Virus record (IMG/VR): IMGVR_UViG_2713896781_000012
DNA length: 25,730 nucleotides
From: a virus
Lineage: Duplodnaviria; Heunggongvirae; Uroviricota; Caudoviricetes
Strand: one strand, 5' to 3'
Position 1 is the stretch's first letter, and every line of letters starts with the position of its first letter. The position numbers and the translations under genes are program-made. Shown piece after piece: positions 3,603-11,130 of the stretch. Below the pieces are notes generated by a model, which was not told where the DNA came from, searched no databases, and saw only the letters and a program-made list of their open reading frames with translations.

Positions 3603-3860
3603 TCACGCAGTAAACTCCTTCACCAGCGTTTCAAACTGGCTTACCTGTCCTTCCAGTTCCGCCACGCAATCCACCAGCTCATCCACCGCCTTTTGTGTGC
3701 GGTGTTTTGCCTGCAGCAGATCACGAAGCGCCGGAGTAAGCTGCTTGCGGAGCGTATCTTTTTTCACGCTCGTTTTTTCCATCTGTTCAGCACAACGAAG
3801 CATCTCCTGCGCCTGCCGACGAAGTTGTTCCGGTGAAACAGTGATTGTTCTGTTGTTCAA
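3603..3860 (-). CDS. Hypothetical protein, 85 aa, predicted coiled coil
   Basis: ORF starts at a TTG that overlaps the DnaB-like TGA stop (TTGA); same strand and coupling pattern as the replication operon. Confidence 0.45.
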   Translation of the reverse strand: MNNRTITVSPEQLRRQAQEMLRCAEQMEKTSVKKDTLRKQLTPALRDLLQAKHRTQKAVDELVDCVAELEGQVSQFETLVKEFTA

Positions 3861-5257
3861 AATAAACGCTCCGTTTTACTGCCCGACATGCGGTTATTGC
3901 TGTATCTGCGCGGATTGCCCGGCGTCATGGGTGTGGAAAGAACCCGGGCACTCTCCTGGTCCACAGGCAGAAAATGTCCGTTATGAAAACGCCGGTAAAT
4001 GGTCCCGAGTGTGCCATTACGCTGTTTCGTGATGTTGATTTCTGCTATGCCTCTGGCCTGTGTATCCGGGTTATACACCTCATCCCTGTAAAGCATCAGA
4101 ATGATGTCGGCATCAGCCTCTATTTCCCCGGAGTTTTTCAGGTCTGAGTTCATGGGACGTTTATTGGGTCTGGATTCCACGCCTCGGGAGAGCTGGCTCA
4201 GAGCAATCAGCGGGAAACCGCCGGATTTTGCCAGGCTTTTAAGTCCCTTTGAGATTTCCCCCACAGCAAGGTCGTGACGCCCCGTGCTGCGGGTTTTAAT
4301 CAGACCGAGGTAATCGACCACCACCAGCGCCGTTTCCGGGTGTTTCATCCGGTGGTGCTTCGTGGTTGCACATATCTCATCAATGGTCAGGTTTGCCTGA
4401 TCCACCATCCAGATATTACGCCCCGTCATTCGTCCCACGCCCTGCGAGAAACGCGCCCAGTCTTCATCTTCAAAACGGGCAACAGACTTAAGACGGGATA
4501 CCGGCATTCCACCGGCAGCAGACACCATACGTTCACCAATCTGGATGTTCGCCATCTCCATGGTGAACAGAAGCACGCCATGCCCCTGCTCAGTCACCTT
4601 GTCGATGATGTCCAGCGCAAGTTCGGTTTTCCCCATCGAAGGACGGGCGGCAATGAATACCAGGTCACCGGGCTCCATACCGCCCGTTTTTGCGTCCAGT
4701 TCATCAATACCGGTCATCAGCGCCCTGGATTTCTCCAGTCCCTGATTGCGGCATTCAACACGGTCGACCACTTCCGGAAGGACATCATCAATGTGAACCG
4801 GCTGAATGACGCCCTTTCCGGTCGACAGTGAGGCCATCATGTTCTGCACATCCTTCAGGGCATCCTCGGCTGCTTCACAGGTATACGCATCACGTAAATT
4901 CTGTAATGCTTCAGTCAGTGTTTTTTCTGCATCGCGCAGTGCGGCATTGCGCCGCAACGCTGCGACATAGTGCTCCAGTGAAGACTTCACCCAGGTTTTG
5001 CGTCCGGTGTCGGTAATCACCGGGGCAAGTTCCGGCATCTCATTGCACAGCAGTACGGGGTCAATGACGCCGGATATGCGAGCCTGTCTGCAAATCCCCG
5101 CGTAAATATCCCGGTACTGACGCACAAAAAATACATCCGCCGGAAGTGTGGCCAGAATATCCATCACTTCCGGATCGGCCCCACGCAGAAAAAACGCACC
5201 GATGACAGCGCCTTCCAGGTCATCGTTACGCCATGCCGGGGTGTTCTGGCTGGTCAT
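3857..5257 (-). CDS. Replicative DNA helicase, DnaB family
   Basis: 466 aa; Walker A AARPSMGKT and the DnaB-type C-terminal RecA-like domain (DYLGLI, SQLSR). ATG at 5257 overlaps the upstream stop as ATGA. Confidence 0.9.
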   Translation of the reverse strand: MTSQNTPAWRNDDLEGAVIGAFFLRGADPEVMDILATLPADVFFVRQYRDIYAGICRQARISGVIDPVLLCNEMPELAPVITDTGRKTWVKSSLEHYVAALRRNAALRDAEKTLTEALQNLRDAYTCEAAEDALKDVQNMMASLSTGKGVIQPVHIDDVLPEVVDRVECRNQGLEKSRALMTGIDELDAKTGGMEPGDLVFIAARPSMGKTELALDIIDKVTEQGHGVLLFTMEMANIQIGERMVSAAGGMPVSRLKSVARFEDEDWARFSQGVGRMTGRNIWMVDQANLTIDEICATTKHHRMKHPETALVVVDYLGLIKTRSTGRHDLAVGEISKGLKSLAKSGGFPLIALSQLSRGVESRPNKRPMNSDLKNSGEIEADADIILMLYRDEVYNPDTQARGIAEINITKQRNGTLGTIYRRFHNGHFLPVDQESARVLSTPMTPGNPRRYSNNRMSGSKTERLF

Positions 5258-6153
5258 GCGGCAACACCTCCGATACGAGAACGGTAGCTGGGCCAGTTAA
5301 ACGACAACCAGTTGCGCCCGCCATCGGTGATCCTGTCGGCAATCCGGGGACTGATGAACGCCCACAATTCTTCCGGTGAAAGGTTGCTGATCAGGATAGT
5401 TGGCAAAATACCCTCATACCGGGCATTGATAATTTCCTGCAAAATGGCCATTTCAGCCGCACTGCCAAACTGAACGCCGACTTCGTCGACAATCAGCAAA
5501 TCCAGTGACGCATAATGCTCAATGACGTCATCCGCTGTTTTTTCACTGTCATTCCGCCAGCAGTTTTTCACAGCCCGGGTAAGGCGCATCACGTCGGTGA
5601 TCTCCACACTGGCCAGATAGTTACGGATGATGTGTTTTGCCATTGATACCGCCAGATGATTTTTCCCGGTACCGCAACTGCCGGTCATAACAAGACTGGT
5701 ACCGTTCTCCAGCATATCTGGCCAGTTCTCCGCATAGCGGCGACAGGCCGCAAGATTTCTGGCTGCGTCAGGATTAACCTCCAGATAATTATCAAACTCG
5801 CAGTCCCGAAAACGCAGAGCAATTCCGGCGTTATCAGTCAGTTCTTCCGCCTTGAGGGACGACAGTTCCATGGTCAAATCACTGGCCTCAGCGATCAAGC
5901 AGTCAGGGCAGCATGAAATTTTTTCTCTGTCCTCGCCATTACGATCGATCCACACCAGTATATGCGTACGATATTTACCGTGTTTTTCGCAATATCCGCG
6001 ACCTTCACGCATCAGGCAGGAACGATAAGGCCATGGCTTTTCGCCCTTCTGAGCAAATGCAATCTCTGCCCGTAACTCATCCATTTCTGCCCGTAACTCA
6101 TCCATTCGCGCCTGTAGTCTTGTTTGTTTCTCACGTTGGTCAATCGTCATCAT
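5254..6153 (-). CDS. Helicase loader, DnaC/IstB-like AAA+ ATPase
   Basis: Walker A GSCGTGKNHLAVSMA and Walker B LLIVDEVG; Cys-rich N-terminal segment. ORF-track start 6162 is GTG; ATG-ATG at 6153/6150 with GAGGTG upstream is the preferred start. Confidence 0.85.
   Translation of the reverse strand: MMTIDQREKQTRLQARMDELRAEMDELRAEIAFAQKGEKPWPYRSCLMREGRGYCEKHGKYRTHILVWIDRNGEDREKISCCPDCLIAEASDLTMELSSLKAEELTDNAGIALRFRDCEFDNYLEVNPDAARNLAACRRYAENWPDMLENGTSLVMTGSCGTGKNHLAVSMAKHIIRNYLASVEITDVMRLTRAVKNCWRNDSEKTADDVIEHYASLDLLIVDEVGVQFGSAAEMAILQEIINARYEGILPTILISNLSPEELWAFISPRIADRITDGGRNWLSFNWPSYRSRIGGVAA
6066..6107. repeat. 21-bp perfect-to-near-perfect tandem duplication inside the DnaC-like gene
   Basis: CTGCCCGTAACTCATCCATTT followed by CTGCCCGTAACTCATCCATTC; encodes an in-frame MDELRAE-MDELRAE duplication. 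Confidence 0.85.
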
Positions 6154-6163
6154 CGCTGTCACC

Positions 6164-7156
6164 TCAGAATGTCAATTTGTTACTGGATTTACCGAATTTG
6201 TCAGACATGGCTCCCAGGCCAGCCAGGACATCGACCTGTCGCTGTCGCCCACCTCCGTGAGCGGCTGGCTGTTGCCAGTAATCTTCGAAGTGACGATCGG
6301 GTCCAAAGAACGTCGCAGCCTGCTTCACGAACTGTGTGCCGGTATTTCCTGTAGCACGTACCCAGGCGGCATACCGCTTCACGCCATCAAGCATGGTCTC
6401 CGGTTTTATTCCCTCCCTGATACGGGCTTTCCAGGCTTTGAAGGCTGCTGACTTGGAATTGCCACCAGCACGTTTGGGATATTCCTGCCAGGCCTGTTCA
6501 AATTCCGGTGAATATTCCTGTCGGGCAGAACGCGCTGGCGCAGACGCGTCAGCGGATGCATCAATAGTGTTTTTAGTCTCCGTTGTAATCTCTGTAGTAA
6601 TCTCTGTATTTGTATCAACATTCGGCGTATCCCCTGTTCCGTTATGACGTCGGGGGGTGTTCCGTTTTAACGTAATAGCTGTATCGCTGATTGCATTATT
6701 GCTGTTACTTTCTGGCGAAACAGAAGAAGGTGTGGTGATGGCCGCAATTGCCTGTGGGTTGATCCCGACAAACAAAATATTGCTGCATTTCACCCCATCG
6801 AGCATTTCCACCGTGCGTAAATCCAGAGTAATAAACCCTGCATCGCGCAGACGCTTCAGCGCATCTGCGGTTTCCCTTTTCCCGAAACCAAACTGCTCAG
6901 CAAACGCCTGGTAGCTTCTTTGCAGTTTGTCGCCCTGAAAACGCTTGCGATATCCCAGCAACGCTCCGGTGTGCTCATCCCTGACCTCTGTCGGGCGGTA
7001 CCAGTAAACGATCTCTGAAAGCAGAGCGATAGCCGTCGCATCCGGACGCCCACTGGGTAGTCGAATATATTTCCACCAGTTCGCAGGTGTAACATTGCCG
7101 GAAATATTAATTTGACCAATAGCCATAACTTCCGGTGTGGGGGCGTAACGGCTCAT
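6164..7156 (-). CDS. Putative phage replication initiation protein (O-like replisome organiser)
   Basis: 330 aa, immediately upstream of and overlapping the DnaC/DnaB homologues. ATG at 7156 with GGAAGGAGG RBS. Central low-complexity linker (TEITTEITTE) containing DNA repeats. Family assignment is by position and architecture, not verified. Confidence 0.55.
   Translation of the reverse strand: MSRYAPTPEVMAIGQINISGNVTPANWWKYIRLPSGRPDATAIALLSEIVYWYRPTEVRDEHTGALLGYRKRFQGDKLQRSYQAFAEQFGFGKRETADALKRLRDAGFITLDLRTVEMLDGVKCSNILFVGINPQAIAAITTPSSVSPESNSNNAISDTAITLKRNTPRRHNGTGDTPNVDTNTEITTEITTETKNTIDASADASAPARSARQEYSPEFEQAWQEYPKRAGGNSKSAAFKAWKARIREGIKPETMLDGVKRYAAWVRATGNTGTQFVKQAATFFGPDRHFEDYWQQPAAHGGGRQRQVDVLAGLGAMSDKFGKSSNKLTF
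6585..6672. repeat. Iteron-like direct repeats inside the initiator gene (candidate replication origin)
   Basis: GTAATCTCTGTA x2 in tandem (6585-6608) and TGTTCCGTTATGACG / TGTTCCGTTTTAACG (6635-6649, 6658-6672), followed by an AT-richer stretch. Confidence 0.4.
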
Positions 7157-7452
7157 ACAACCTCCTTCCGCGGCATGAGAATTGTGTAGCCACGCGCAGG
7201 TTGTAGTCTGGCTTTTGCATCAATAGTAAGCGTTGCAATTTTTCGGATATGAAGATAACCAGCTCTTTCCAGTGCCAGGGTTTCCCTGAATATCGCTTGC
7301 TTAGAACAACAGCAGAAATCAGCAAGCACCTGATGATCAATAACTCTCTCGCCTTCACCGTCTGAAGAACCCGACATCAAAACACGCAACATAATCAGGC
7401 GCTGAATCGGGTTATCGAAAGCACATCCGCACACAAACTGAAAACAGTTCAC
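7153..7452 (-). CDS. Hypothetical protein, 99 aa
   Basis: GTG start at 7452 overlapping the upstream stop (GTGA), GGGAGG 6 nt upstream; its stop overlaps the O-like ATG (ATGA). Confidence 0.5.
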   Translation of the reverse strand: MNCFQFVCGCAFDNPIQRLIMLRVLMSGSSDGEGERVIDHQVLADFCCCSKQAIFRETLALERAGYLHIRKIATLTIDAKARLQPARGYTILMPRKEVV

Positions 7453-7673
7453 GCCACACCTCCCAGACGCTTAAACATTTTTCCAGACAGAAATACCGCC
7501 AGAGGGTAACTGATGGTGTAGCTACGCCCCTGTAGTTCGCACACGACTTTCTGGCTTTCAGCGTTGACTAGGCAAACCCGCAGAACGTGACCGTTGCTGG
7601 TGGCGAACCACTGCCCCACACGGGGGCAACGGTTGTATCGGTGATACAGGGAATTAACGATGTGGCGGATCAT
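7449..7673 (-). CDS. Hypothetical protein, 74 aa
   Basis: ATG at 7673 overlaps the upstream stop as ATGA; member of the coupled operon. Confidence 0.5.
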   Translation of the reverse strand: MIRHIVNSLYHRYNRCPRVGQWFATSNGHVLRVCLVNAESQKVVCELQGRSYTISYPLAVFLSGKMFKRLGGVA

Positions 7674-7864
7674 GGACGCACCTCCACCGTAGTTACGTAT
7701 TTAACCGGGCTACCTTTCATTGAGATGGTTTCACACATCTCTGCCGCTTTCAGTTCCGCTGTTTTTCTGGATTTATAGCGACGGTGCCAGACAGATACAT
7801 CCGTGCGAACTGATACATCGTTTCTGTATTCCGTAGTGGAGATGATGATTTCGTAACTAATCAT
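7670..7864 (-). CDS. Hypothetical protein, 64 aa
   Basis: ATG at 7864 overlaps the upstream stop as ATGA. Confidence 0.5.
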   Translation of the reverse strand: MISYEIIISTTEYRNDVSVRTDVSVWHRRYKSRKTAELKAAEMCETISMKGSPVKYVTTVEVRP

Positions 7865-8715
7865 GGGCGAACCTCCTTGTCAGAACCATTCAGCCTGGAA
7901 TCAACAAGTGCAGCGCCAAAAACAGCATCACCAACACGGTCGTACAGTTTGCTAGCCAGCGGAGATTCAACGGCCTTAAGCATTGGATAAAGCTGGCTTG
8001 TCCAGATTTGATGGATTTCACGCAAATGCAGGTATACGCCTCTGGCGTTTCGTGCGACAGCTGACATATCAGACGCATCGGCACCTGATAAACTCTTCTC
8101 CATCAGGTTAAAGGCGTTGATGTATGCCTCTTTGAACCGGGCAGCACGTTTACCAGTGAAGCCCATGGCAAGGAACGCGAAGCCATCGCGGGTGATTTGA
8201 TAGCAAGGTAGTTTGCGGCCTGATGCGTCGGTGTATTCACTTAACACAAAATTGTGTTCAGTAAATTCAGCGGAACATTCGAGGTTTCTAATTCTATCTA
8301 AAACCCGCTCATGCCGTTTAGTAAAGTAATTAGCTACTGCAAGAGATGTGGTGACAACGCGACCATTGATAATCGTGATTTCAGGGTGAGATTGGGTTGG
8401 GAGAGTAGTCATGGTGACAGCCCCTATGTTGAATTCAATGAACTCACCACCAAGGCTTTCCACGACCATATAGGTGGTGAGACGTACAGGGGTGGAAATA
8501 CCGGTCAACATAGAACCCGGCCCAACCGAAGTTGGCCCTGCACGCCCCACCATAATTTGGGCGTAACGATGCTCATGACACGAAAAAACCGCATGAGCGC
8601 GGTTGTGCTCTATATTGAATTTCGGGTTTCCACGCCCGGCACCCGCTTTATAAGGTGCCTGAGCAGTGTAACGTCCCGGAATTGCAGAATCAATATTTGG
8701 TCTTGAAATGATCAT
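7861..8715 (-). CDS. Phage regulatory protein, Rha family (start uncertain)
   Basis: Residues about 102-200 read MTTLPTQSHPEITIINGRVVTTSLAVANYFTKRHERVLDRIRNL...YQITRDGFAFLAMGFTGKRAARFKEAYINAFNLME, matching the Rha motif from memory. ATG at 8715 gives 284 aa; internal ATG at 8412 is an alternative start. Confidence 0.55.
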   Translation of the reverse strand: MIISRPNIDSAIPGRYTAQAPYKAGAGRGNPKFNIEHNRAHAVFSCHEHRYAQIMVGRAGPTSVGPGSMLTGISTPVRLTTYMVVESLGGEFIEFNIGAVTMTTLPTQSHPEITIINGRVVTTSLAVANYFTKRHERVLDRIRNLECSAEFTEHNFVLSEYTDASGRKLPCYQITRDGFAFLAMGFTGKRAARFKEAYINAFNLMEKSLSGADASDMSAVARNARGVYLHLREIHQIWTSQLYPMLKAVESPLASKLYDRVGDAVFGAALVDSRLNGSDKEVRP

Positions 8716-8799
8716 ATAGCTGCTGATATCTTTAGAACTGTTCTTGGATGTTTCGGAGCCGTTTTATGCGAAACAGCTCCCCGTTATTGATGTTGAGTG

Positions 8800-8824
8800 A
8801 GCCGGGTTACTCCCGGCTTTTTTT
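8800..8824 (+). terminator. Intrinsic terminator on the plus strand, antisense to the Cro-side operon
   Basis: AGCCGGG-ttact-CCCGGCT followed by TTTTTT, abutting the stop of the minus-strand gene 8824..9531. On the minus strand the hairpin has no U-run. Confidence 0.55.
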
Positions 8825-9531
8825 CATCGCTGCCAACCAATAACCTGAAATAACCCCATTTTCGGGTGATACCAGCGAGTCCCTCGCGGTTCTGCTTCCT
8901 CCATAACCCGATAAAAAGCAGCCATAAACGGTTCCACAGCAACAATTGCGCGACGTGACAACAATCCGTCCGGCGTCATGAACTCATGTGTGTCTGTAGG
9001 AATTTGATAGGCGTTCACCAGATTGCGGCATTTATCATCTGACAAACCGGTTTTTGCTTTCAGTTGGCGATATCCGGCATAGCCCTCACGAATAGTGCCC
9101 TTTTTAATTTGCTCGACTGTTTCAGCAACGTGGCTGACTTTTTCTTCCACCTGAGTGATCCGTTTCTGTTGGCGAACGGCTTCAAGAGCCATCGCGGCAA
9201 CCATTTCGATTTCGCTCATTGGCTTACGGATCTGTTCTTCCAGTTCGCGCCAGCGATCTACCAGGCGAGCTGTGAATTCAGGACAGAGCTGTGCGACGAC
9301 AATGATGCTGTCGCGCTTACCTCGTTCACCTTCGAATACATACGCGCTAGAAAATCGGCGAGGCCCAAGTGATTGTTTATTCTCAATTTCCACAGTCTGT
9401 GGAAATTGGATGATTCCCTTTTTAGCCAGTGTTTCAATAGTTCTCTTAACACTATCTGGTCGGCTTCCCACCAACTCTGCGATCTCAACGCTGGTCATGG
9501 ATGCTTTGCCGTTAAAAATTGCGGTGTTCAT
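8824..9531 (-). CDS. Phage regulatory / antirepressor-like protein (Rha/ORF6N-like N-terminus), in the cII position
   Basis: 235 aa; N-terminal NGKASMTSVEIAELVGSRPDSVKRTIETL resembles the Rha/ORF6N DNA-binding motif. ATG at 9531 with AGGAGA RBS, ATGA overlap with the Cro-like gene. Confidence 0.45.
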   Translation of the reverse strand: MNTAIFNGKASMTSVEIAELVGSRPDSVKRTIETLAKKGIIQFPQTVEIENKQSLGPRRFSSAYVFEGERGKRDSIIVVAQLCPEFTARLVDRWRELEEQIRKPMSEIEMVAAMALEAVRQQKRITQVEEKVSHVAETVEQIKKGTIREGYAGYRQLKAKTGLSDDKCRNLVNAYQIPTDTHEFMTPDGLLSRRAIVAVEPFMAAFYRVMEEAEPRGTRWYHPKMGLFQVIGWQR

Positions 9532-9755
9532 TGTTGGTCTCCTGTGGGCTTGTCATCTTCTGTATTCGCTAGACTTGGGTGTGTATATGGAATGCTCGGA
9601 TCCAGATGACAAAGAATGGCAACATCCTCCGGAACACCTCGCGTTTTCCACTTTCCAACACCTTGACTGCCACGAGGCCTTCCTTTCTTTGGGAACCTGC
9701 GACCAATAGCGGCATTGGTTTTAAATTGAATTTTTAATATTTCATAAAGGGTCAT
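9528..9755 (-). CDS. Cro-like DNA-binding regulator (YdaS-like)
   Basis: 75 aa, divergent from the repressor gene; GSQGVGKWKTRGVPEDVAILCHL resembles the YdaS-type Cro motif from memory. Confidence 0.5.
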   Translation of the reverse strand: MTLYEILKIQFKTNAAIGRRFPKKGRPRGSQGVGKWKTRGVPEDVAILCHLDPSIPYTHPSLANTEDDKPTGDQQ

Positions 9756-9866
9756 TCTTTAGTCTCACGCCAGATACTTTGTTATCCAACGATGTTAACC
9801 ACAGGAACCCAAAGTATCAAGAAATTCTGTTACTTTAGTATCAACAGCCATGAGAGGAGAAGAAAA
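9756..9866. promoter_or_regulatory. Divergent promoter/operator region between the Cro-like and cI-like genes (OR-like)
   Basis: Three related sites: ATACTTTGTTATCCAAC (9774-9790), CCAAAGTATCAAG (9809-9821), TTACTTTAGTATCAAC (9831-9846), sharing GTATCAA/ACTTT half-sites. Confidence 0.5.
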
Positions 9867-10523
9867 ATGAAGTCTTTAGGTGAACGTCTCATCAACGCAC
9901 GGCAAAAAGCTGGGTTAACACAAGATGCGTTGGCTAAAAAAGCTGGGGTCACCAGAGTTGCAATAAGTAAAGCCGAGCAAGGCCTTACAAAAAGTTTCAA
10001 CGGTGACACCCTTTTTAAAGTTGCAGCTGCACTGCGGTGTTCACCGCAGTGGCTTCAGAACGGAGATGAAAAAGATAAGCATTGGGAAAATAATGTTAAG
10101 AGCTGCCCACAGAGAGACACAGCACACTCTTACCCTGTAATTAACTGGGTTCAGGCAGGATTATTCGCAACTTCTGGTGATGACTACAACATGTATGATC
10201 AGGATAATTGGAGGCATTCTGTAAAATACGCTGGTGAGAGGGGGTTCTGGCTGGAAGTGCACGGAGACTCAATGACTTCGCCCGTAGGAATAACATTTCC
10301 TGAAGGAATGTCGATCCTTGTCAACCCAGATAAAGAAGTTTTTTCAGGGTGTTACGTCATCGCCAGAAAAAAATCTACCAATGAAGCAACATTCAAAAAA
10401 TATATTTCTGACATGGGAAAGGCGTTTCTAAAGCCCCTTAATCCACAATATCCAATCATAGAAATGGACAATGATTGCGAAATAGTAGGTGTTGTGGTTG
10501 ATGCCAGGTGGGATATTTTCTGA
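9867..10523 (+). CDS. Prophage repressor, cI/LexA-like (HTH-XRE plus S24 peptidase domain)
   Basis: ATG at 9867 with GAGAGGAGAAG RBS (ORF-track start 9792 is upstream and in frame). N-terminal HTH (LTQDALAKKAGVTRVAISKAEQG); C-terminal S24 signature HGDSM...ARKKS and a QAG putative autocleavage site. Confidence 0.85.
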   Translation: MKSLGERLINARQKAGLTQDALAKKAGVTRVAISKAEQGLTKSFNGDTLFKVAAALRCSPQWLQNGDEKDKHWENNVKSCPQRDTAHSYPVINWVQAGLFATSGDDYNMYDQDNWRHSVKYAGERGFWLEVHGDSMTSPVGITFPEGMSILVNPDKEVFSGCYVIARKKSTNEATFKKYISDMGKAFLKPLNPQYPIIEMDNDCEIVGVVVDARWDIF

Positions 10524-10626
10524 CCAGACACAAAACACAAAAAGAAACCAAAGTATCAAAAATCACTTGCCACACCTTGATACCTTAGTTACCATAAAAC
10601 AAAGTTCGTAACTGAGGTATCATCTC
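10524..10626. promoter_or_regulatory. Candidate OL/pL-like operator-promoter region
   Basis: CCAAAGTATCAA at 10548-10559 is identical to the 12-mer at 9809-9820; further TTGATAC / GTATCA half-sites at 10577-10583 and 10616-10621. Confidence 0.45.
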
Positions 10627-11130
10627 ATGATCAATAAAGCTACAACTCTTGACTGTCTCGAAGAACTGAAAAACCTCGGCAGCCTCATTACACTAATAGC
10701 AAAAGCAACACCTGATGCTACGCTCTCTAGCGATATAGAGTCATGCGCAGGACTGGCATGGGATATGACAAATAGCATATCCAGAAAGCTATCGTCAGCA
10801 ATGCTTTTACAGAACAAAAATTCTGCAATCAACAACCGTCTTTGCACCCAACGCGAAGCCTGCGGCTTAACAACCGCCGAACTCGCCAGGCTGCTCGATC
10901 TCGATGAAGAAATTATCATCCAGTGGGAGAGCGGAGAGTATGAACCAACTATCAGTATGCTTATCCCACTGGCAAATATTCTTGGCTGCGATCCGATGTG
11001 GCTGTTAACTGGTGAGGTTACTCCTCCGGAGCAACCAAAAAGTGAGGAGCAGCAACACCATGACGCATCTCAACAAGTTTGCCCCTTATCTCGCGAAGCT
11101 CTTCTACGGAAGAACCAATACCAATGGTGA
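10627..11130 (+). CDS. HTH-XRE domain protein, first gene of the leftward early operon
   Basis: 167 aa; C-terminal half has a helix-turn-helix (LTTAELARLLDLDEEIIIQWESGEYEPTISMLIPLANILGCDPMWLLTG). Not arginine-rich, so not an N-like antiterminator. Confidence 0.6.
   Translation: MINKATTLDCLEELKNLGSLITLIAKATPDATLSSDIESCAGLAWDMTNSISRKLSSAMLLQNKNSAINNRLCTQREACGLTTAELARLLDLDEEIIIQWESGEYEPTISMLIPLANILGCDPMWLLTGEVTPPEQPKSEEQQHHDASQQVCPLSREALLRKNQYQW

Follow-up and report, generated by a model that had tools for sequence, protein, structure and literature searches.

A candidate small RNA gene on the plus strand between roi and the isrK/C4 promoter of a lambdoid Escherichia coli prophage

The locus and its neighbours

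The DNA considered here (the window, by which we mean the whole stretch of 25,730 nucleotides in the IMG/VR record IMGVR_UViG_2713896781_000012) carries every credible gene between 3857 and 9755 on the minus strand. Within this run lie 130 bp (8697–8826; hereafter the unit) whose signals read on the plus strand. The features of the unit, and those on either side of it, are as follows.

7861–8412, minus: Rha-family gene in the antirepressor position (Phage_pRha, 105.8 bits; 183-aa product), with its true start at 8412 and not at 8715
8470–8557, minus: C4 antisense RNA gene of the P1 immI type (Rfam RF01695, full length, 82.4 bits against a gathering threshold of 45)
8582–8658, minus: isrK RNA gene (Rfam RF01394, 61.6 bits against a gathering threshold of 50), with its own terminator at 8604–8587
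8665–8693, minus: isrK promoter, from the sequence (TTGATT 8693–8688, 17-bp spacer, TACACT 8670–8665, +1 at 8658), its position set from where the Rfam isrK match begins
8703–8708, plus: candidate –35 hexamer TTGAAA, from a promoter scan; the same in alleles A, B and C
8724–8732, plus: candidate extended –10 element TGaTATCTT (TG 8724–8725, hexamer 8727–8732), from a promoter scan; kept in the alleles
8738–8826, plus: predicted non-coding transcript of about 88 nt, its start placed 6–8 nt past the –10 and its 3' end in the T-run
8740–8749, plus: invariant 10-nt block GTTCTTGGAT, from allele comparison; close to the RNA's 5' end, and perhaps a seed or binding site
8755–8780, plus: middle hairpin GGAGC-c-GUUUU-augc-GAAAC-a-GCUCC, from minimum-energy folds
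8799–8826, plus: intrinsic terminator with an 8-bp G+C-rich stem, a 5-nt loop and 7 T, from the sequence, a terminator scan and the fold
8824–9531, minus: roi-like gene (235 aa), named Roi in phage PhiR49_2 and a Rha family transcriptional regulator in RefSeq

A sequence-only reading of this DNA had placed the plus-strand terminator at the end of a gene in the cII position, between two minus-strand genes. Matches of the 235-aa product to Phage_pRha and HTH are weak, and a protein family search returned no CII family match for it; the gene is thus better described as encoding a Roi/Rha-type DNA-binding protein. On the other side, the neighbour of the unit is not a gene for a protein but the promoter of an RNA module. 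The isrK and C4 genes together form a P1 immI-like antirepressor module, and a further match, to c4-a1b1, falls below threshold at 8671–8619. The isrK promoter stands back to back with the candidate plus-strand promoter and is invariant across the aligned loci, and the mosaic joint with ST64B-type phages is found at about 8694–8696.

The control of the antirepressor by IsrK and C4 is known from Gifsy-1, in which antQ is the upstream neighbour (PMC4825925). The module of the P1 immI and Gifsy-1 type (IsrK/C4, STnc1160) is the immediate neighbour of the unit and has the promoter region in common with it; however, the unit is on the opposite strand and lies outside the described system. The possibility that it is a component of the module was considered and rejected, both on account of the strand and because ST64B and others have the module and lack the unit. 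In addition, C4 loop alleles and unit alleles vary independently of one another: the specificity loops of C4 vary among loci that have one and the same unit allele, so that unit and C4 are not matched.

The terminator, the promoter and the predicted RNA

The terminator consists of GAGCCGGG-ttact-CCCGGCTT followed by 7 T (8799–8826, plus strand), that is, G-AGCCGGG-TTACT-CCCGGCT-T and then further T residues, with six G–C pairs in the 8-bp stem. Seven consecutive T occupy 8818–8824 and are followed by CA; the final T together with this CA is the complement of the roi stop codon. A G+C-rich stem, a short loop and a U-tract directly after it are what is expected of an intrinsic (Rho-independent) terminator, and the site is the top match of the terminator scan. 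The isolated hairpin has a folding energy of –16.0 kcal/mol (z = –4.4 against shuffled sequences). Under a strict rule (a stem of 7 bp or more, free of mismatches and with five or more G/C, a loop of 3–8 and at least six T within the next eight bases) only two sites are found on both strands of the window, at 8800 on the plus strand and at 24207 on the minus strand; in sequences simulated from the window by a first-order Markov model, the mean number of such sites is 0.055. The hairpin and T-run that had been read at 8800–8824 are therefore present exactly there and are rare. Read on the minus strand, the hairpin runs into CACTCAAC, without a U-tract, and it should hence terminate transcription on the plus strand only. 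Since all credible genes from 3857 to 9755 are on the minus strand, no plus-strand protein gene needs this terminator, and the earlier remark that a canonical plus-strand terminator sits inside a minus-strand operon is borne out.

The sequence-only reading had also pointed to TTGAAA at 8703–8708 as a possible –35 element for a transcript of about 85 nt. It is separated by 18 bp from TATCTT, which is preceded by TG and so forms an extended –10; a plausible promoter thus lies about 90 nt before the terminator, and the RNA predicted from it is about 88 nt long. In alleles B and C the identical scan picks up TGgTATTTT, again at a spacing of 18 bp, and in one of 33 IMG/VR variants the –35 reads TTGGAA. 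All three alleles yield a predicted promoter and a predicted terminator in one and the same arrangement. The match amounts to 9 of 12 consensus positions plus the TG, and the bare consensus is at chance level (13 promoter-like sites against 11.8 expected in 8 kb); the credibility of the promoter therefore comes from the comparison across loci and not from the consensus match itself. TTGAAA is separated by 9 bp from the divergent isrK promoter's –35 and occupies –45 to –50 with respect to that promoter, and its conservation could reflect upstream promoter DNA serving isrK.

Folding of the predicted RNA gives –28.8 kcal/mol, with z = –3.5 relative to 200 dinucleotide-preserving shuffles. For each of the three main alleles, the plus-strand RNA folds more stably than the complement (–30.4 against –28.5 in allele A, –32.4 against –25.4 in B and –31.6 against –26.2 in C). 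The accessibility of the 10-nt block varies among the predicted folds, and the U tail is 6–8 long. A search of Rfam 15 with E values up to 10, in a release whose content includes AgvB, AsxR, Esr41 and STnc100, gave no family match for the unit, the sub-threshold matches (sroD, PrrF and SorX among them) being driven by the terminator. The best of these, sroD, was rejected: it scored 24.5 bits against a threshold of 50, and its alignment covers the terminator hairpin only. An exact-sequence search of the literature was without a match, and the unit corresponds to nothing in the papers found.

Distribution and conservation

Of 5426 complete E. coli genomes, 211 carry the unit; it is also present in nine phage records, of which seven are Stx2 phages (Stx2a/Stx2d), and in about 90 IMG/VR contigs, besides metagenome contigs. 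Its carriers include ST131, O55:H7, O145, O111 and some O157 strains, as well as Stx2a-converting phages. Among single strains and phages, E. coli NMBU_W05E18 has it in identical sequence, and it is likewise present in O55:H7 RM12579, in CE10 and in the phages PhiR49_2 and ASU11. Its position is constant, with this roi allele on one side and the isrK promoter on the other, and the unit is always what comes next after the 3' end of this roi allele. Phages of the ST64B type have the isrK module in common with these genomes and lack the unit; distant roi homologues also lack it, and there the next gene is directly coupled. Like a moron, the unit has its own predicted promoter and terminator and is present or absent at the same joint among related genomes, and it appears to have been inserted in moron-like fashion into the early-right operon of a lambdoid E. 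coli prophage, between the roi stop codon and the promoter of isrK, C4 and the antirepressor.

A scan anchored in the flanks and blind to the content between them returned 131 instances, in 127 of which promoter, block and terminator are intact, each of the other four differing by one base. Every instance of the unit comes from closely related E. coli prophages, among which there are only three alleles of the body and two of the promoter, and such counts are therefore not independent. Single-base variants of the 10-nt block account for three of the 131. Both stem arms and a run of 6–8 T are kept in 83 of 83 loci in a pattern search that did not require the T-run. Some conserved blocks were a search requirement in two of the scans; allele C turned up in searches that did not require the 10-nt block.

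What is kept in the three diverged alleles is TTGAAA, TGnTATYTT at a fixed spacing, GTTCTTGGAT, the middle hairpin, the terminator stem and the T-run. Identity across alleles is 7/7 for the –35, 10/10 for the block (with both flanks diverged and containing indels), 6–7 of 7 just before the terminator, and 8/8 and 7/7 for the two stem arms. The promoter spacer is variable (8 of 15 positions identical, 7 of 15 different), as is the terminator loop, which occurs as TTACT, TCACTA, CCACTG, CCACTC or TTACTA. Indels begin only directly after the –10, and the segment from there to the block contains them. The middle of the RNA cannot be aligned among the alleles and a hairpin is nonetheless formed in every one, at the same position and from unrelated sequence (GGC-uu-ACUUC...GAAGU-u-GCC in allele B, GGC-CUGC...GCAG-uu-GCC in C). 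Conservation is hence a patchwork on a scale of at most 15 nt, as would be predicted from selection on a plus-strand transcription unit, and recombination alone does not explain it.

Polymorphism within alleles bears on the strand that the hairpins serve. Two G-to-A changes that are common in allele A lie in the middle hairpin's 5' arm, where they disrupt the plus-strand helix and keep G·U pairs in the minus-strand RNA; in the terminator of locus L155 a C-to-U change of the stem retains a U·G pair on the plus strand only. For the middle hairpin, the within-allele polymorphisms leave the strand undecided. The hairpin replacements are described here by hand, as MAFFT and RNAalifold misaligned the terminator owing to the loop indels, and a formal covariation analysis has little power with three body alleles.

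Interpretation and its alternatives

We read 8697–8826 as a small self-contained plus-strand unit, probably an independent and unannotated small RNA gene, and place the probability of this reading at roughly 0.55; that the unit gives rise to a transcript at all seems distinctly likely. A sigma-70 promoter with an extended –10 (8703–8732) would drive an RNA of about 88 nt, laid out as a putatively single-stranded 5' block (GUUCUUGGAU), the middle hairpin and the terminator (8799–8826), with its 3' end presumably at the T-run. The promoter would be convergent with PR and divergent from that of isrK, and would probably be active when PR is repressed, since read-through from PR would cross it. The RNA is expected to act through base pairing and, if it exists, the probability divides roughly evenly between a cis-antisense and a trans-acting mode. 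It would be antisense to read-through transcripts of the PR-type promoter, and it is perfectly complementary to the roi–isrK spacer of any such transcript; this makes an oop-like action possible, in which the duplex would be cleaved in an RNase III-dependent manner and roi uncoupled from the downstream antirepressor and replication genes. An additional or alternative trans-acting (Hfq-type) role, possibly with a host target, is suggested by the U-rich 3' end and by the 10-nt block, which is invariant in three diverged alleles and would be superfluous for a purely cis-antisense RNA. A more speculative proposal, which we consider doubtful at present, is that lysogens contain a new small RNA with the conserved seed GUUCUUGGAU that might regulate host mRNAs in about 4% of E. 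coli, including those with Stx2a prophages, or might form a two-RNA switch with the divergent promoter of isrK, at a distance of 81 bp, and so set the antirepressor (induction) threshold.

The unit might be an insulator only, blocking stray plus-strand transcription from the A/T-rich back-to-back isrK promoter region before it enters roi, cro and the immunity region, with the RNA as a functionless by-product. Conservation is strictest in the stem and T-run, no RNA target was found in the window, and the terminator lies exactly at the roi stop codon, so that roi would be shielded in full. This explanation is nevertheless unlikely, because it accounts neither for a dedicated extended –10 promoter at a fixed spacing (the simplest way to avoid stray transcription being to have no promoter) nor for the invariant 10-nt block and a hairpin kept with three different sequences; moreover, ST64B-type phages share the isrK promoter, with a gene directly upstream, and do without the terminator. 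The features might instead serve the minus-strand transcript from PR, as a stabiliser or processing site at the 3' end of the roi mRNA or as a nut- or put-like element for antitermination past the isrK terminator (8604–8587) toward the antirepressor and replication genes. That terminator, about 200 nt downstream, must be crossed by PR transcripts, there is no further intergenic space from cro to the unit, hairpins can form on both strands, and only on the minus strand can the allele-A polymorphisms of the middle hairpin be accommodated by wobble pairs. Yet the A6–8 run that would precede the first hairpin on that strand is kept everywhere and has no known role there, the loop of this hairpin varies in sequence and length even inside one allele, unlike boxB, and the changes in B3 and L155 disrupt the minus-strand pairing while retaining wobble pairs on the plus strand. 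No boxA-like sequence was seen, and a nutR-like site was rejected, as the loop is variable and neither the hairpin nor the spacer has a second copy near PL. With promoter-shaped conservation also left unexplained, a minus-strand role seems improbable.

It had been proposed that the RNA is an oop-like antisense RNA, and here the orientation against a PR-type operon stands and the membership of the oop family does not. Lambda oop (77 nt, antisense to the mRNA of cII–O) and the RNA of the unit would both be short RNAs directed against the PR operon, with a promoter of their own (predicted in the case of the unit), an end at a terminator near the end of the operon's second gene, and a similar size. 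A true homologue of oop that had moved to another gene is, however, very hard to reconcile with the comparison. Alignment to lambda oop is at the level of shuffled sequences (score 16 against 13.3 ± 1.9, with 13% of shuffles equal to it) and covers the terminator tail only; the partner gene is roi-like and not cII; and the overlap with roi is confined to the stop codon (8824–8826, 3 nt at most), in contrast to about 55 nt of cII coding sequence in lambda. The oop promoter stands before the replication gene O, whereas that of the unit is back to back with the isrK promoter, and the 10-nt block is conserved without coding constraint, unlike oop. Sequence and anatomy thus already refute homology to oop, and the likeness is one of orientation and possible mode of action. 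In lambda, the oop RNA forms a duplex with the early-right transcript, which leads to cleavage (10.1101/2024.10.31.621285). A small protein, for instance a toxin or membrane peptide, might also be sought in the only open reading frame of the predicted RNA, which has 31 codons and starts with ATG at 8748 (8748–8843). This is scarcely credible: the frame passes through the terminator, so that a terminated RNA would have no stop codon, it is shifted between alleles A and B with the peptides unrelated past the second residue, and no usable Shine–Dalgarno sequence is visible upstream of the ATG.

If the unit is a small RNA gene, two other kinds of phage RNA invite comparison. The sar RNA of P22 (68–69 nt) is convergent and lies within the antirepressor control region of a temperate enterobacterial phage, where it overlaps the ribosome-binding site of ant and directly blocks its translation. 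Both sar and the unit are tied to an antirepressor control region, the unit through the adjoining isrK/C4 module; Rfam indicates no relationship, however, and the RNA of the unit, which lies upstream of the isrK promoter and is hence not complementary to transcripts starting there, would be complementary only to PR read-through. HnrS, StxS, PreS (LPR1), svsR, the Pas sRNAs, AgvB and AsxR are prophage-borne sRNA genes (PMC13502914, 10.1101/2024.10.31.621285, PMC12803456, 10.64898/2026.05.13.724894). Like the unit, as predicted here, such genes (described in pathogenic E. coli) are compact cassettes of promoter, RNA and terminator in lambdoid prophages, with the U-rich terminator that is typical of Hfq-bound sRNAs. 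They are located in the late region, in the PL operon or at the 3' end of cI, whereas the unit is elsewhere and its sequence matches none of them; for svsR, HnrS, the Pas sRNAs and PreS/LPR the difference in genomic position comes from a comparison with the literature.

Searches of the window for a target in trans gave k-mer complementarity at chance level (two 10-mer matches against about four expected), and the best seed duplex there, at –26.2 kcal/mol, compares with –23.7 to –30.7 for shuffled seeds. A 12-of-14 complementarity to the start codon region at 10624–10637 was set aside because it is lost in alleles B and C, and nothing could be learnt from long-duplex scores with IsrK, C4 and the ant leader. 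Between the 5' block (GUUCU..AUGUU) and the C4 loop of the window, GUUCUAUGUUGA, there is a resemblance such as a C4 mimic or an anti-C4 sponge might show; this idea was rejected because the C4 loop is UUUCCUUGAGCG, UUUCCGUAUGCG or GGUCAUGUGCGA at loci with one unit allele. As to regulation of the unit itself, the CI/Cro half-sites of OR and OL (TTGATAC...GTAAC) have no copy in 8697–8826, and no LexA box of the form CTGT-N8-ACAG was seen there.

Were the unit to be transcribed, about one in 25 sequenced E. coli, together with Stx2a-converting phages, would contain an unannotated regulatory RNA. Because it adjoins an RNA-controlled antirepressor switch that helps to decide induction, such an RNA could influence prophage stability or the induction of toxin phages, or it could act on host genes, as other prophage sRNAs do.

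Two points of annotation hold whether or not the unit is expressed. In the open reading frame 7861–8715, the first 101 codons are a translation of the isrK and C4 RNA genes, and the RefSeq annotation of this gene wrongly carries these two RNA genes as an extension of the protein. The Pfam family ‘Ash’ appears to collect translations of the isrK/C4 RNA region.

A plus-strand terminator and its candidate promoter

The immunity region of the window is lambdoid, and in it a plus-strand cassette of candidate promoter, predicted RNA and terminator (the unit, 8697-8826) lies between a roi-like gene and the isrK promoter.

9867-10523, plus: repressor gene, LexA-type (S24 and HTH)
9528-9755, minus: cro-position gene
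8824-9531, minus: roi-like gene, 235 aa, annotated elsewhere as a Roi or Rha family regulator
8799-8826, plus: terminator hairpin, GAGCCGGG-TTACT-CCCGGCTT then T's
8727-8732, plus: candidate extended -10 of the unit, TATCTT with upstream TG
8703-8708, plus: candidate -35 of the unit, TTGAAA, 9 bp from the isrK -35
8693-8665, minus: isrK promoter (TTGATT 8693-8688, 17-bp spacer, TACACT 8670-8665; +1 at 8658, taken from the Rfam start of the isrK match)
8658-8582, minus: isrK RNA gene, Rfam full length, 61.6 bits (gathering score 50)
8604-8587, minus: isrK terminator
8557-8470, minus: C4 antisense RNA gene, Rfam full length, 82.4 bits (gathering score 45)
7861-8715, minus: 284-codon ORF, matching Phage_pRha strongly over its C-terminal 183 residues (from 8412)

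The sequence-only reading had described a plus-strand hairpin and T-run amid minus-strand genes, and this description holds. The stem has 8 bp, six of them G-C, its loop is 5 nt long, and seven T in a row (8818-8824) come before CA. Read in the minus direction, the hairpin gives way to CACTCAAC, so that only plus-strand transcription could be terminated by it; between 3857 and 9755 every credible gene is on the minus strand. Among terminator-like sites in an 8-kb scan the hairpin ranks first, with a folding energy of -16 kcal/mol (z = -4.4). Under strict criteria (perfect stem of 7 bp or more, 5 or more G/C in it, loop of 3-8, at least six T in the next 8 bases) the whole window, scanned on both strands, yields two sites, against 0.055 expected from simulated sequence; the sole other site is at 24207 on the minus strand (GGCGCCA-gaaa-TGGCGCC then TTTTTTAT).

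The TTGAAA pointed out in the same reading is indeed there, and 18 bp separate it from TATCTT, which has the TG just ahead of it. The unit and isrK promoters are thus placed back to back, with predicted starts about 81 bp apart. As a bare consensus match the unit promoter is at chance level, and its TTGAAA could alternatively owe its conservation to lying upstream of the isrK promoter.

For the predicted 88-nt RNA the folding energy is -28.8 kcal/mol (z = -3.5). Between a 10-nt block near its 5' end and the terminator is a middle hairpin, found in the same place in every allele of the unit and built from unrelated sequences: GGAGC-c-GUUUU/GAAAC-a-GCUCC in allele A (this window), GGC-uu-ACUUC/GAAGU-u-GCC in allele B and GGC-CUGC/GCAG-uu-GCC in allele C.

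Conservation and placement of the unit

The transcribed body exists as three alleles (A, B and C) and the promoter as two (A versus B/C); promoter and terminator of alleles B and C are called by the same scan as those of allele A. Conservation between alleles is patchy, changing within stretches of 15 nt at most.

Conservation between alleles, in plus-strand order
cTTGAAA (-35): identical 7/7
15-nt promoter spacer: identical 8/15, without indel
TGnTATYTT (extended -10): kept
Segment from -10 to block: indels of up to 6 nt
Block GTTCTTGGAT: identical 10/10 across A, B and C
35-42 nt after the block: unalignable
GTTGAG(T/C): kept
Terminator stem arms: identical 8/8 and 7/7
Terminator loop: variable (TTACT, TCACTA, CCACTG, CCACTC, TTACTA)
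T-run: 6-8 T in every instance, including 83 loci from a pattern without a T-run requirement

Purifying selection on a plus-strand promoter-RNA-terminator unit would be expected to produce such a pattern; mosaic recombination alone does not account for it, since short blocks alternate in place of long ones.

Of 5426 complete E. coli genomes, 211 contain the 134 bases 8697-8830, in every case on the chromosome and in none annotated as RNA. Nine phage records (seven Stx2a/Stx2d-converting phages, ASU11 and PhiR49_2) have them as well, as do IMG/VR and metagenome contigs. These counts are not independent events, since every instance is a closely related E. coli prophage sequence. A content-blind scan, with the two flanks as sole anchors, gave 131 instances, 127 with promoter, block and terminator intact and four with a single-base difference. 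The unit always has this roi allele on one side and the isrK promoter on the other, and the 80 listed (of 89) IMG/VR stretches with this roi 3' end are all loci already known to carry it. ST64B-type phages have 8400-8694 (Rha gene, C4, isrK and its promoter) in common with the window at 95% identity, and diverge exactly at the isrK promoter -35; there a gene lies directly upstream of that promoter, with no terminator. Distant roi homologues (Yersinia, Providencia, Proteus, Atlantibacter and others) have no hairpin, and the next gene is translationally coupled. The unit is therefore a discrete cassette, intrinsic to neither neighbour.

Identity and possible action of the predicted RNA

The unit is a real, well-conserved feature. 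Its terminator is rare and strand-specific, a promoter-shaped site is conserved at a constant distance, the body is structured and non-coding, and the whole is confined to a single mosaic joint. Judged from sequence, 8697-8826 is most likely an unannotated small RNA gene, and we put the probability that its transcript exists at roughly 0.7. That the unit is purely an insulator terminator is less likely; the invariant block and conserved -10 speak against it. Less likely again is an RNA element of the minus strand, acting in roi 3'-end stability or in antitermination past the isrK terminator. In each of the three main alleles the plus-strand RNA folds more stably than the complementary strand: -30.4 against -28.5 in A, -32.4 against -25.4 in B and -31.6 against -26.2 in C. 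Rare polymorphisms favour neither strand consistently: a stem change at one locus (L155) and the B3 variant keep wobble pairs on the plus strand only, and two allele-A variants break the plus-strand middle helix and keep G.U pairs on the minus strand. Formal covariation is underpowered with three alleles, and automatic alignment misplaces the terminator.

The proposal of an oop-like RNA at a cII-position gene did not survive as a family assignment. The 235-aa roi-like product has weak Rha and HTH matches only and no CII match, an alignment to lambda oop scores in the range of shuffled sequence, and the predicted RNA overlaps only the stop codon of the roi-like gene, whereas oop overlaps about 55 nt of cII coding sequence. 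True homology is thus very improbable, and the oop label should be dropped as a family name and retained for no more than a possible analogy of mechanism. A small protein is more improbable still, as the sole ORF runs across the terminator and shifts frame between alleles. A C4 mimic was rejected because the C4 specificity loop varies among loci with one and the same unit allele; a nut site is not evident, there being no second copy and a variable loop. Phage operator half-sites are absent within 8697-8826. Rfam 15 gave no family match (best, sroD, 24.5 bits vs 50, on the terminator alone), the known prophage sRNAs svsR, HnrS, Pas, PreS/LPR and StxS lie at other phage-genome positions, and the exact sequence did not occur in the literature searched.

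As a small RNA gene, the unit would be expected to fire best under repression of the early-right promoter PR, because PR read-through would cross the unit promoter, giving an RNA of about 88 nt with its 3' end in the T-run. Such an RNA might act in cis, since PR transcripts contain its full complement in their roi-isrK spacer; cleavage of the duplex, as with oop, would uncouple roi from the downstream antirepressor and replication genes. Alternatively, the block and U-rich tail might be a seed or protein-binding site for action in trans, for which the invariant GUUCUUGGAT amid diverged non-coding neighbours, with the tail, argues, since cis-antisense needs no particular sequence. We regard the two modes as roughly evenly split. 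No target in the window stands out. The pre-terminator segment UUAUUGAUGUUGAG (8784-8797) is complementary at 12/14 positions to 10624-10637, the start-codon region of the first plus-strand gene after the repressor (ATG 10627), a probable coincidence, as alleles B and C have a different segment here.

Neighbouring RNAs and repeats

The isrK/C4/Rha layout is the RNA-controlled antirepressor arrangement of P1 immI and the Gifsy-1 isrK locus (PMC4825925). The ORF 7861-8715 is not a single gene, since its first 101 codons are isrK and C4 translated and Phage_pRha begins at 8412. RefSeq annotates protein over these RNA genes in the window (8413-8715, minus) and in locus L001 (702-1556), and 'ash family protein' CDSs likewise overlie them in L002, L004, L005 and L007. 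The 101-codon stretch matches Pfam PF10554 (Phage_ASH) at 33.7 bits (cut-off 26); this family may model, at least partly, the translated C4/isrK region rather than a true protein domain.

The loop of the second C4 hairpin and a site within IsrK co-vary among loci (window 8470-8658, minus; L002, L003, L004, L006, L007 and L008): in this window GUUCUAUGUUGA pairs with IsrK UCAAUAUAGAGC; L002 has UUUCCGUAUGCG in the loop and GCAUACGG in IsrK, and L004 and L006 have UUUCCUUGAGCG and GCUCGAGG. The pattern suggests allele-specific recognition of the heteroimmune type, as in P1/P7 immI. C4/IsrK alleles assort independently of those of the adjoining unit.

Within the roi-like coding sequence, 9384-9408 is a perfect palindrome of 12 + 12 nt (CAATTTCCACAG-c-CTGTGGAAATTG); its length is far beyond chance, and a protein might bind there, Roi itself being one candidate. 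Half-sites TTGATAC...GTAAC / GATACTTTGTTATC are repeated on either side of the repressor gene (9765-9845 and 10544-10622), and this immunity type presumably has its OR and OL operators there. Finally, a truncated tRNA gene at 1-60 on the minus strand (Rfam tRNA, 43.3 bits, model positions 1-58), uncalled by ARAGORN because it is cut off at the window start, may mark the prophage attachment site.
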